A stretch of DNA of 64,000 nucleotides from contig NC_088855.1 in assembly GCF_963853765.1 (NCBI RefSeq), positions 3,100,001-3,164,000 of the forward strand, read 5' to 3'. Position 1 is the first letter of the stretch. Each line of letters starts with the position of its first letter. Positions 11,359 to 16,462 of the stretch are shown here, one piece after another. A model generated the notes under the pieces. The model saw only the letters and a program-made list of their open reading frames with translations. It did no database searches and was not told where the DNA came from. The stretch comes from Magallana gigas (taxonomy: Eukaryota). Made by a program: the position numbers and the translations under genes.

Positions 11359-11481
11359 GTAAAATACTTCATTCTTCAGTACCTACATTGTATTTACAAT
11401 ATCTGACGGTGAATATATATATTTATTGAGGTAAAATACTTCATTCTTCAGTACCTATTTACAATATCTGACGGTGAATAT
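11351..11481 (+). repeat. 65-bp minisatellite, left part (about 2 units), starting at the tetraspanin exon-6 donor
   Basis: TTATTGAG|GTAAAATACTTCATTCTTCAGTACC at 11351 and again at 11423. Confidence 0.9.
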
Positions 11482-11586
11482 TTCTCCTTTAAATCCATTC
11501 ATTACCTTCCAAATGAAAGCTGAATACTATGATACTAGTAAATAACAACACATTGTGTGGAATTAGCAACGACACGCTGCAGCTAT
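11478..11586 (-). repeat. Split direct repeat B2 (109 bp, element 3' end)
   Basis: ATATTTCTCCTTTAAATCC...GACACGCTGCAGCTAT duplicated at 11888-11996. Confidence 0.95.
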
Positions 11587-11676
11587 TTAATATTTGGCAT
11601 ATTAAATGTACACACACATAATTATGGCATAAAATTGGATCACATGATTTATTGATTTTAATAAAACAATTCTGAA

Positions 11677-11891
11677 AATTTAAACTTTCCGCTGTACGTG
11701 TCGTCCTAAACTGGTATTTAACACCTGAGTAATTCTTTATATAGCCTTGCTAATAAACCGGTTCTTAAGAACCAGGTGACACAAACAGGTATTCGAATGA
11801 AAACCTTATATATCCGGATAATTAATTCATTATTATACCAAGTAGAAATTGATTTCTGTCTAATTCGTCCCTCAAACGAAAGAAATCATAT
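11677..11891 (-). repeat. Split direct repeat A2 (215 bp)
   Basis: Copy of 16248-16462; shares the ATAT core with B1. Confidence 0.95.
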
Positions 11892-11996
11892 TTCTCCTTT
11901 AAATCCATTCATTACCTTCCAAATGAAAGCTGAATACTATGATACTAGTAAATAACAACACATTGTGTGGAATTAGCAACGACACGCTGCAGCTAT
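11888..11996 (-). repeat. Split direct repeat B1 (109 bp)
   Basis: Appears identical by eye to 11478-11586 (offset 410 bp). Confidence 0.95.
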
Positions 11997-12131
11997 GTAA
12001 ATATAAAGAACGGGGAACAAATGCTACTATTAATATAGGATATAATAACGTAATCCAACTTCATATATATTCAGAAAAATCAATACAAAAAAAAAATACA
12101 ATATAATCAATAAACAACATGATTACAACTA

Positions 12132-13139: not shown

Positions 13140-13488
13140 ATTTGTAAAGGAACACCAATAAATATTTTTTCGCTTTGAAATTATCTACCGGATATGTATA
13201 AAAATACATATACTTATATCTACATATCAGCTTAATTAAGATATTCAGCACATTTTCTTCAGAAATGAAGATATCAGTTTGATAAAAAACCAAACTTGCC
13301 AAATGGCAAACCACAAATGTGGTGAAAGAAACTTCAGTAAATCCATAGTGATAAAATATTTATCTCTATTACAACATAGCGCAAATTGCCTGATATTTCT
13401 CATACAAGTTTATGGGAAATAATTCCCAATTAATCAATAAATTTGTTTATTTTGAAGAATTTAAAACTGCCAAAAAACAATTTTGAAA

Positions 13489-15711
13489 TCAAACTCTGAA
13501 ATCAAAAACAAATGCAAGCATTCTAAACTTTAAATCTTCTTTACCAAAAATACCAGATCCGAGTTTACCACGTGTGTAAAACTCCTTTGCTACTGGAAGA
13601 TCCTTCCAATCTACAATATGTGACCTGTAAACTTCAGAAATTAAAATTGGCCAAAAGGCTGATGATTCCCATAGCGGAGCTACTAATGTTCCATATCCTT
13701 TGCATTCGTTCAAATTCTCCAAAACTCTTGGAATAAGATAAAATGGCGGTACGATCCATGCATTCAAACCTGTCCAATTAATAGTAAATGCATCAACTGC
13801 ATACGTAAAAGGATTCCAATACCTGGAACAAAATTTATCTACCTTTGCATTGTAATCACAAGCAAATAAATCAATATCATACGGACCCCATTCCCGTGAT
13901 AGGTCTTCAAAAACAGTTTTCACGATACCCCAATCATCAAAGTCGACAATTCTGCTCAAATAATCTGCTTGCTCATTGAGTTCTCTTGGTATCCATTCAA
14001 TTTCAATACCAATCTTATATTCTAAACAAATTTGAAAAATGTTCATTGCAAGATCTTGTAAGTTATTTTTCATACTCCCTTTTTGAACAATGGAAACAAC
14101 ATTTGCGTTGTCTGTAAACCATTTTATATTCTCACCTTTGAGAAATTGTACAAATGACCGAAGAACTCTATTCACCGCGGCCAATTCTCTCCATGTGGAA
14201 CTCATAATTCTCTCAGATTCTTCCCATAAACCATGAGAAACATTTTTACCTGTCCGTACGCAATAACCGCCATAACCAGTATCACTTGCATCTGTGTACA
14301 CTACCAGATTAGAACTTGGTTTAACTTTCATATCCCTTCTATTCAACATATCTAAAGACGATTTCCAGAAACTTATCTGTTTTTTACTTTCCTCAGAAAT
14401 TAAAATCATGCTATTCCATGTTGGAGCAGACACAATGTCAATACTAAGACATTTGGTCATTAACTGGGCTACACTTCCGATAACAACAGACATAGATATG
14501 ATTTGTCCAACTTAACTTGCTAGTCGTCTTACCTTTATTCTGCAATTCTGGTTCATAAAATGCTCAATTTTGAAAATTGTTTTTTGAATCTTAAATACAC
14601 GCTTTTCAGGAATGTAAATTTTCCCCATATTACAATCCAAAACAACACCAAGATACTCGATAACTTGACAAGGGATCCACATGGACTTTTCCACTTTAGG
14701 CACAAAACCTGAACAAACTAAATCATACTGTACCTCTTTGGATATTTTGCATGCTTCGTCATACTTACTATGGCAGCCAAACCCATCATCTAAATACATA
14801 AGTACAGTTTTACCTTCTCTACGCCATTTCTTAACTAAGGATCGTGTGAGTTTAGTAAAAATATATGGCGCAGATGTGAGTTTAGTAAAAATATATGGCG
14901 CAGATGTGAGACCAAATGGCAAAACATTAAAACAGAAATATCGATCTTGAACACCAAATTTCCATGAAAATCCTAAATATTTTCTATGGTCAGGAAAAAT
15001 ATCTACATGGTGATATGCACTTGTGATGTCAAATTTAAAACACCAACTATTTTTATTTGTATACATAAGAGCGGTTCTTATATCGTCATATTTCACAGAC
15101 TGTTTCCATACATGCTTATTAACTTCCCTTAAATCTAATATAAGCCTTCTTTTCCCACTGGAGTTCACTGAAACAGAAAGAGGATTAGTAACCAAAAACT
15201 CTGTATTTTGTTCGGATATCAAACCGTTTTCTAATAGCTCCATTATTGCTCCCTGTACGAAAACATCTTCCTGTAAAGCAGATTTATTATTATGCGAAAA
15301 GCTCTGCTGTGGTAAAGAATAAAAAGGTATTTTATAACCATCCTGAATAGTATCTATGATATAATGACAAGCATCAATGCATTTCCAAAATTCAATATTT
15401 GATTTTAATCGCCCTCTAACAGAGACTTTGCCACCTTCTTTATACTCATAGCATTCGTTAAACTCATCAACACAACTTTTTCCATCATAATACTTATCTT
15501 TTATCAAAGATGATTCTTTAGACTGTTTAGCCTCTCTATTTAGCGGACTTAAGCTCCGGGCATTCTTTTCTTTGGTGATTGGGTTTTCCGCAGTGGAAAC
15601 AGCCAATGGGAAATCTGGATGCAGCTGGCATGATGGGGAAGCCAAAGGGCGTTGGGCCACGAAAAGGCTGTCTAGCTGGAAAAGGAAAATAAGGAGCACT
15701 GCTCCTAACAT
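13489..15711 (-). pseudogene. pol (reverse transcriptase - RNase H - methyltransferase-like), interrupted by one in-frame TAA at 14514-14512
   Basis: RT motifs RLILDLR, FDITSAYHH, LPFGL and YLDD. RNase H residues YTDAS, RELAA, FTDN and ADYLSR. MT-like IDLFA...DAF...WIVPPF. The two listed ORFs share a frame (RRLAS*VGQIISMSVV). Confidence 0.9.
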
Positions 15712-16243
15712 TAGAATAGCTACTCTTAGATTTCAGTTTTTCTTTTTGCTTCTCCTTTTCTTTCTTTTCTTTCATGGCTTTATTTTCCGCTTTAAACATT
15801 CGTTTTTCGTCATCCGAATCATCAGCCAATGGATTGGTTACATAATTTTTCACTGTACTCCACCCACAAGGTGATGCATCAGCCATTTTGATAAGTTTGT
15901 TACGTTTATTACAAAGTTCAACTGATTCATGAATAAGTTCCTTGCAATAATCATATTTATTGTTATTCAAGGCCCATGAAGCCTGCGTCAACGTATCAAT
16001 AATCTTCTCGTTATGTTCAAATTGATCTTTGTTACCTGGATGTTTCCAGACTATCGCTTGTTCTGACTTTAACTTCTTCACTTCAGACGATACGGAGGAA
16101 GTTGCCCCCTGTAATTCTCTTTTAAAATTATCAAGTTGCATTGCCATAGTATTCTCCATGTCCATTTTCTGTTCATTCATTTTGTTGAGAATGGCTTGTA
16201 GCATGTCTGCCTGAGCCCCGCCCGACATCTCCTCGTTCTGCAT
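15536..16243 (-). CDS. Gag-like protein of the YR retrotransposon (235 aa)
   Basis: ATG 5 bp after A1; coiled N-terminus; C-terminal CCHC knuckle CFHCGKPNHQRKEC; overlaps the pol start, as is usual in DIRS-order elements. Confidence 0.9.
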   Translation of the reverse strand: MQNEEMSGGAQADMLQAILNKMNEQKMDMENTMAMQLDNFKRELQGATSSVSSEVKKLKSEQAIVWKHPGNKDQFEHNEKIIDTLTQASWALNNNKYDYCKELIHESVELCNKRNKLIKMADASPCGWSTVKNYVTNPLADDSDDEKRMFKAENKAMKEKKEKEKQKEKLKSKSSYSNVRSSAPYFPFPARQPFRGPTPFGFPIMPAASRFPIGCFHCGKPNHQRKECPELKSAK

Positions 16244-16247
16244 GCCG

Positions 16248-16462
16248 AATTTAAACTTTCCGCTGTACGTGTCGTCCTAAACTGGTATTTAACACCTGAG
16301 TAATTCTTTATATAGCCTTGCTAATAAACCGGTTCTTAAGAACCAGGTGACACAAACAGGTATTCGAATGAAAACCTTATATATCCGGATAATTAATTCA
16401 TTATTATACCAAGTAGAAATTGATTTCTGTCTAATTCGTCCCTCAAACGAAAGAAATCATAT
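16248..16462 (-). repeat. Split direct repeat A1 (215 bp)
   Basis: Appears identical by eye to 11677-11891. Confidence 0.95.

Follow-up and report, generated by a model that had tools for sequence, protein, structure and literature searches.

Integron-like single-strand exchange as the best-fitting model for the integration of a PAT-like retrotransposon family in Magallana gigas

A 64,000-nucleotide stretch of the Magallana gigas genome (contig NC_088855.1 of assembly GCF_963853765.1, positions 3,100,001 to 3,164,000 of the forward strand; hereafter the window, whose coordinates are used throughout) exhibits a 4,981-bp PAT-like tyrosine-recombinase retrotransposon on its minus strand (11482..16462). 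Comparing its ends with those of other family copies, and its internal joint with those of 17 sister families, we find that the best fit (with a probability of roughly 0.55) is an integron-like single-strand exchange, in which a folded junction of the form AA-N6-TT would be joined to a loosely similar host duplex. In this model the tyrosine recombinase (YR) likely pastes in one DNA strand only. We give about even odds to the more general proposal that PAT-like retrotransposons use an attC-like folded site, joined to loose AA-N6-TT targets by single strand exchange and conserved in at least 18 families, as a eukaryotic counterpart of integron cassette insertion with no short homologous core.

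The element exhibits the layout of the echinoderm form of Pat1, its parts following one another on the minus strand as A1, gag (with a zinc knuckle), reverse transcriptase (RT)-RNase H-Dam-like methyltransferase (MT), YR, B1, A2, spacer and B2. The whole element and its repeats are located as follows:

11482..16462, minus strand: PAT-like YR retrotransposon with family-defined ends (plus strand TTCT... to ...TCATAT; 57/59 B ends begin with TTCT and 57/60 A ends close with ATAT)
16248..16462, minus strand: A1 repeat, 215 bp, its outer 6 bases being the element's junction spacer
11892..11996, minus strand: B1 repeat, 105 bp without ATAT
11677..11891, minus strand: A2 repeat
11587..11676, minus strand: unique spacer, 90 bp, with a minus-strand AATAAA at 11648-11653
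11482..11586, minus strand: B2 repeat, forming the element's 3' end

Both repeat pairs are identical, as originally predicted: 215/215 for A (11677-11891 and 16248-16462) and, counting ATAT, 109/109 for B (11478-11586 and 11888-11996). The spacer with its AATAAA is also where it had been placed. The three quoted junctions proved exact, namely GGTGA-ATAT-TTCTCC on the left (11478), AATC-ATAT-TTCTCC inside (11888) and AATC-ATAT-ATATATTT on the right (16459). From these the original prediction had drawn a reciprocal crossover in a 4-bp ATAT core, common to a circular B/A junction and the host, without target-site duplication (TSD), and had bounded the element at 11478..16462. The right boundary stands; the start is displaced to 11482 by the family-defined end, bases 11478-11481 being host sequence.

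Other copies of the family do not share the ATAT core. Forty of 151 candidates from a genome search were scored, and further searches and fetched regions were added. This yielded 61 outer B and 61 outer A ends, and removal of a false anchor and a duplicate insertion (L033) left 59 B and 60 A ends; three left ends with indels were not anchored, and one A end is truncated by 17 bases. ATAT closes 57 of the 60 A ends and precedes 2 of the 59 B ends, where 0.7 would be expected. Compared with ATAT position by position, the four host bases in front of B agree at 0, 1, 2, 3 or 4 positions in 13, 21, 20, 3 and 2 cases, against 12.6, 21.1, 18.1, 5.6 and 1.6 expected. Given this near-constant presence at A ends and chance level in B flanks, ATAT is to be assigned to the A repeat. 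A further two A ends, found later and checked separately, keep the spacer, and no A end lacking it appeared in a search independent of the A tip (54 matches). The cores of other copies are thus variable, the very outcome that the original prediction had named as fatal to its crossover.

Empty sites agree with this picture. Empty paralogues of four copies (L058, L071, L063 and L055) exhibit zero gain or loss at the junction, and that of a fifth (L074) is within one base of an A run. Such paralogous sites of other copies lack ATAT, as in GGCA|TTCA, and the letters of the right flank are host-derived. Flank searches for L025 and L026 returned no spanning paralogue; the paralogues of L027 were rejected as too diverged, and L017 and L078 as low-complexity. 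DIRS1-like copies of the same genome, taken as a control, share ATT at both ends in 4/4 cases where both ends are readable (a fifth is readable at one end only). A TSD was sought and rejected: overlaps of 0, 1, 2, 3, 4 and 8 bases occur 30, 15, 5, 3, 2 and 1 times in 56 paired sites, against 36.5, 12.4, 5.4, 1.2, 0.3 and 0 after shuffling, with no fixed overlap length and with low-complexity AT sites contributing to the slight excess of longer overlaps. At the window site, the empty repeat unit of the host holds a 10-base AT run and in the filled site 4 such bases precede the element and 6 follow it, exactly 10; there is therefore neither TSD nor loss, as had been predicted. An empty allele of this site was looked for, and none is shown here. 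Since the target was an AT run, a shared core and an element-borne sequence are indistinguishable at the window copy, and ATAT at both its edges appears, from the other copies, to be a coincidence of this one landing site. What remains supported of the earlier scheme is integration by opening of a B/A junction; the ends are fixed and the insertion is net-zero.

A looser rule emerges from the host flanks. After the A end, T is found at +1 in 34, at +2 in 44 (p = 1e-10) and at +4 in 31 of 60 sites, with C at +3 in 23. Before the B end, A is found at -7 in 35/59 and at -8 in 28/59. This left bias is best fitted by AGAA, the mirror of TTCT, at a 6-base spacing (z = 4.4, the best of 8 tried). A 7-bp spacer fits the duplex junction of the element (AGAA-N7-TTCT) but not the hosts (z = 1.0). 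The inner joint of the window family reads GAAA-TCATAT-TTCT, and its N6 (TCATAT) is found at 0/59 B ends. Sister families were collected by fetching 40 of 151 YR matches, of which 32 with both repeat pairs define the 17 families and 8 incomplete ones were dropped. AA-N6-[T/G]T is present at the inner joint of 18/18 families, with 11 different N6. In the sister families the N6 of the element is kept at 31/31 readable A ends and at 0/31 B ends; host T at +2 recurs in 21/31 (p = 7e-5), and host A at -7 in 14/31, which is not significant. Junction and targets thus look like AA-N6-TT with no homology within N6. Two inverted arms around a 6-base spacer are the layout of a tyrosine-recombinase site, and AA-N6-TT exhibits it, with no homology test in the spacer and with only one of the two possible outcomes. 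No trade-off between left and right matches was detected (rho = -0.03).

The joint is also predicted to fold:

11840..11899, no strand assigned: B1/A2 junction GAAA-TCATAT-TTCT (11882-11895; crossover between 11891 and 11892) with the partner AGAA-ATTGA-TTTC in A2

The prediction for the window is an imperfect hairpin of 22 bp, in whose spacer one base stays unpaired. The fold has an energy of -14.3 kcal/mol (z = -6.3; 0/200 shuffles as stable), and a long stem still spans the joint when 120 bases are folded. Control segments from YR, pol and the spacer give z = 0.1, 1.0 and -0.6, and the outer A end partly retains the fold (z = -2.6). Over the 18 families, with the partner strand chosen as the best match in each, the partner pairs with a mean of 7.6 of 8 arm bases, placing a 5-base spacer opposite the 6-base one at a separation of 21-28 bases from the site. 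Partner spacers of 4, 6 or 7 bases pair 6.2-6.4 arm bases, and shuffled sequences 5.9 +/- 0.14 (maximum 6.4 in 300). Differing Watson-Crick pairs (compensatory) are found at arm positions +1, +3, +4, -9 and -10. Five families have the partner on the A side and 13 on the B side; because it switches sides, the fold belongs to the junction and not to one RNA end. An inner stem-loop motif (TTCGT...CTCAAACGAA), at 11864-11880 in the window, is in A here and in B of most sister families, as if the crossover had shifted between the hairpin arms in evolution.

The mechanism that we propose would begin as in the standard model for the group, with reverse transcription of an RNA running from A1 to B2 and use of the internal B1/A2 copy as template for the joined ends. 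From the joined ends an attC-like hairpin would form, its arms paired and its spacer 6 versus 5 bases long, and YR would bind this folded joint together with a loosely similar host duplex. It would then cut the sense strand at 5'-AA^, which follows the usual polarity of tyrosine recombinases, and swap it with the matching host strand. Replication or repair would resolve the junction, giving the same-strand outcome in every copy. The element would thus enter at one fixed bond of the B/A junction, with neither shared core nor duplication. A precedent is offered by integron attG sites, for which passages of 10.1101/2022.09.11.507474 report experiments where junctions that stayed homogeneous although the cores differed were taken to prove single cleavage, and give a GWT consensus; attC hairpins, as described in part of PMC12614218, have paired boxes and an unpaired central spacer.

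Several observations weigh against this scheme. Its basis is sequence and predicted folds, in which no circle or single-stranded intermediate was seen. The single-stranded complementary DNA (cDNA) of DIRS-1 is antisense and mainly linear according to passages of PMC7192593, whereas the predicted reactive strand here is the sense one; both strands of the joint fold about equally, so the choice of strand is unexplained. The RNA contains the hairpin too, at B1/A2, where its role could lie in reverse transcription; alternatively it could provide a second, inverted binding site in duplex form. One family (L219) pairs only 6/8 arm bases, and in three GT families (L200, L220 and L209) the minimum free energy fold leaves the outer arm unpaired with the proposed partner. 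The 18 families are related and 13 share a TTAT arm, so they are not independent. On the target side, 19/56 paired sites lack any contiguous match, left or right, and target specificity is accordingly loose. Finally, the base at host +3 follows the arm of the family concerned (C in the window family, A in those with TTAT), as microhomology would also give.

Among the alternatives, the one that survives best, though we hold it unlikely, is a single-strand exchange from an ordinary duplex circle (of the attI x attG type), the fold being real and having its role in the building of the junction, at the step of RNA or cDNA splinting. It accounts equally well for all target and end statistics, and suits a junction that is present in the transcript and whose two strands fold alike. 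However, the fold is arranged on the recombination geometry (paired arms and, in most families, a bulge or mismatch at positions -4/-3 of the spacer) and not on RNA ends, and it changes sides between families.

Slightly less probable is integration in the manner of Tn916, through a double-stranded circle, two exchanges and 6-base staggered cuts with no homology test. Here the heteroduplexes would always be repaired to the same strand, and the hairpin would serve as a signal, in the RNA or for reverse transcription, or else as a second binding site. The symmetry of AA-N6-TT and the lack of N6 homology do resemble the homology-independent Tn916 Int (as treated in passages of PMC5812530), and a single-stranded substrate becomes unnecessary. 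Plain replication of heteroduplexes, however, would place N6 at about half of the B ends, and it was seen at none in either sample. An absolute repair bias must therefore be assumed at both ends, 4.5 kb apart, and the conserved 6-versus-5 pairing across the junction is left unexplained.

More doubtful again is an IntDOT-like exchange of the antisense strand, in which the start of B, TTCT(CC), would form the overlap and microhomology of 1-4 bases would be favoured there. At least 3 bases of TTCT are matched by 23/60 right flanks (4.7 expected), and the behaviour of +3, here and in the TTAT families, is as it predicts. It would use the first cDNA strand, and IntDOT requires just 1-2 identical bases (PMC2817482, in part). 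Against it, host +1 in families starting with GT is T in 6, G in 2 and A in 1 of 9 sites. An element C at +3 faces a host A in 5/5 cases and a T in a sixth copy (L224); 26/56 sites have no contiguous match on the right. The AA at -8/-7 of 18/18 junctions and the matching host bias find no explanation. The reciprocal ATAT crossover fits the window site exactly and corresponds to the published shared-core model for DIRS1-like elements (passages of PMC3266345 and PMC7192593), which holds for the DIRS1-like copies of this genome, but after the B-end counts, the ATAT-less empty targets and the spacer unshared at every sister B end it retains almost no credibility.

The coding parts of the window element, with its lesions, are as follows:

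15536..16243, minus strand: gag open reading frame (ORF), 235 aa, with a C-terminal CCHC zinc knuckle (PF00098, E-value = 7.5e-5, above cut-off)
13489..15732, minus strand: pol (RT - RNase H - Dam-like MT), with an in-frame stop interrupting it at 14512-14514; 737 aa, read through in other copies
14845..14904, minus strand: 30-bp in-frame tandem duplication in RT, missing from the other near-full-length copies compared
12132..13184, minus strand: ORF of the tyrosine recombinase, 350 aa from stop to stop, containing the motifs R-K-HxxR-H-Y (PF00589, E-value = 3e-7)

Pfam matched RVT_1, RT_RNaseH and Phage_integrase in the element and gave no match to a DDE integrase. The MT domain following RNase H (Dam, PF05869, E-value = 4e-5) scores 23.7 bits, below the Pfam cut-off of 28.1, which sister copies exceed. 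The element was called complete; this stands for its structure and fails for pol, because of the stop and the duplication. All frames are open in three other family copies (246, 737 and 350 aa). From one open-frame copy the window copy differs by 5 mismatches and one gap over the first 3,400 aligned bases; the insertion is therefore young, which, with the identical repeats, bears out its predicted recency. On this evidence we take the sequence for a real, young PAT-like retrotransposon, structurally complete and lesioned in pol in the assembly.

AATAAA is kept in 31/44 family modules and stands in the sense spacer of only 8/18 families, which makes it weak evidence of a poly(A) signal. One RNA run (X22) covers the coding part mostly in one orientation, which would be sense RNA in most stranded libraries; its reads at the pol stop are transcripts of other copies, since 11/11 of them differ from the window there. 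A splice-acceptor-like TTTTTTCAG ends at 13128, within the tyrosine recombinase ORF on the minus strand. Such a pyrimidine-rich tract, ending in CAG, lies close to where the YR frame begins, both in the window (13128-13140, minus strand) and in the families inspected (L181-L212). The first methionine of YR lies more than 100 codons into the frame in several families, and the phase of the acceptor varies among families. It is likely, from these sequence features, that YR is made from spliced RNA. A rough matrix found no conserved YR splice donor, and the joints listed included no element-internal one (27 further joints were unlisted).

The insertion lies, antisense, in an intron of a tetraspanin gene whose next matching exon is near 18069-18185:

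11275..11358, plus strand: tetraspanin exon upstream of the insertion, 93% to an oyster tetraspanin-4-like protein
11341..11481, plus strand: left part of a host 65-bp array, whose last six bases (GAATAT) are host spacer and include the ATAT earlier read as a shared core
16463..16923, plus strand: right part of the host 65-bp array, about 7 units

The identification as tetraspanin came from similarity to the tetraspanin-4-like protein; Pfam gave no match on single host exons, and the Atlas offered just a lead below 0.9. Each 65-bp unit copies the end of the tetraspanin exon plus its GT donor, so that the intronic array offers about nine potential alternative splice donors. Elsewhere in the window, at 35126-36567, a 48-bp unit is repeated in tandem, with 30 copies that are 97% identical.

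Many family members are likely recombination remnants. Ten matches have a full 3' module, nine of them with both ends recovered; five copies lack the inner module, as expected from B-B recombination, and 36 solos of 380-430 bp have the order B-spacer-A, which A-A recombination would give. Later A-A recombination thus likely leaves 410-bp B-spacer-A solos, and B-B recombination copies without internal module. The possibility that the solos are self-copying mini-elements or re-integrated 410-bp circles is disfavoured, and recombination remnants favoured, because 31/36 are nearest to a full-length module; mutual solo pairs number only two, at 0.5-0.7%. Solo AB repeats have been described for Ngaro of Cafeteria (in part of PMC8547959), and SIRE is the A2-B2 region of VIPER (in part of PMC6681497). 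Two loci (L089 and L033; G000 C1, about 61.2 and 64.4 Mb) exhibit the same solo with the same flanks, duplicated after insertion. Another copy (L065/L066; G000 C6, 37.275-37.287 Mb) is split by an insertion of about 6.3 kb within pol. The genome also contains Ngaro-like elements (L226-L230) without MT, with long B repeats, an SGNH ORF in L229 and joints of the form ...AATT-ATT-AAG or ...CAA-TT-TAT. DIRS1-like elements (L233-L238) have inverted terminal repeats as well as an internal complementary region (ICR); in the copies read, ATT is common to both ends. The three types of YR retrotransposon thus all coexist in the same genome.

By the structural key in passages of PMC4157794, the window element classes as an echinoderm-form Pat1-like element, exhibiting a Gag zinc knuckle, a co-oriented YR and internal repeats outside the MT-YR interval; inverted terminal repeats and ICR, the DIRS1-like traits, were not found inside it. 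The originally proposed PAT-like identity is thereby supported through the split direct repeats, the MT and the zinc-knuckle Gag. A quick RT/RNase H tree (23 rows, midpoint root, no named PAT, SpPat1 or DIRS-1 rows, 5 loci dropped by a motif filter) places it with 17 other rows that have split direct repeats and MT or are from molluscs (SH-aLRT 93), and sets the structurally defined DIRS1-like and Ngaro-like copies of this genome apart. Relatives are common in bivalves, with 72% to a Saccostrea protein. Two close pol relatives (P0028 and P0036; 50-51% identity) are labelled as Candidatus Thiodiazotropha genes on contigs of about 3 kb and are probably bivalve host DNA in symbiont assemblies. 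Repbase contains many oyster DIRS families, and the window family is presumably catalogued there.

With echinoderm-form Pat1-like elements (SpPat1, Lottia, Nematostella; PMC4157794, which already reports the form in a mollusc, Lottia) the family shares the order A1...B1A2...B2, zinc-knuckle Gag, RT-RNase H-MT, co-oriented YR and lack of TSD. It adds the AA-N6-TT junction without shared core, the one-sided spacer and the junction hairpin; the passages of PMC4157794 concerned hold no target rule. DIRS1-like elements (PMC3266345 and PMC7192593, in part) likewise have MT, YR, joined ends rebuilt from an internal copy, TT by the crossover and no TSD, but differ in their inverted repeats, ICR and trinucleotide common to both ends, the window family having direct split repeats and no shared core. 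Ngaro (passages of PMC9210276 and PMC8547959) has the same repeat layout and solo AB remnants; unlike the window element it lacks MT, may carry an SGNH ORF, and in this genome (L227, L229) forms a separate long branch. Integron attC x attG recombination, as described in the same parts of the two integron sources above, resembles the proposed scheme in the imperfect hairpin with paired boxes and unpaired central spacer, the loose target with T at +2 (GWT) and the homogeneous junctions. The window family differs as a eukaryotic retroelement with its own RT, no attI and no cassette array, for which single-strand use is inferred. The Tn916 and CTnDOT integrases (PMC5812530 and PMC2817482, in part) are tyrosine recombinases with loose AT-rich targets and an overlap without full homology, but produce heteroduplexes through two exchanges, whereas the window family gives just one of two outcomes. 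The Starship Hephaestus (part of PMC10104507) is likewise a YR element of eukaryotes, and its target, TTAC(N7)A, is bipartite, yet it is a DNA element without RT that has a 4-bp direct repeat in common with its target. Our search found no paper that ascribes a 6-base spacer, a one-strand outcome or an attC-like fold to DIRS-order elements; the Kangaroo paper and the main reviews, outside that search, may say more.

The element thus appears, on sequence grounds, to be a further member of the known PAT-like kind whose integration rule is probably a new variation. It also illustrates that a core "shared at all three junctions" of a single copy can be luck. The model yields exact and cheap predictions of cut position, strand, spacer length and a 60-base substrate, and there would be interest, for use as a tool, in a recombinase that places about 5 kb at a loosely defined target, keeps the ends fixed and duplicates nothing. 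Target choice and joining by DIRS-order recombinases were called untested in 2020 (PMC7192593, in part). For PAT-like elements, about 60 sites and 17 sister families now contradict the standing DIRS-order model of a shared core and a double-stranded circle.

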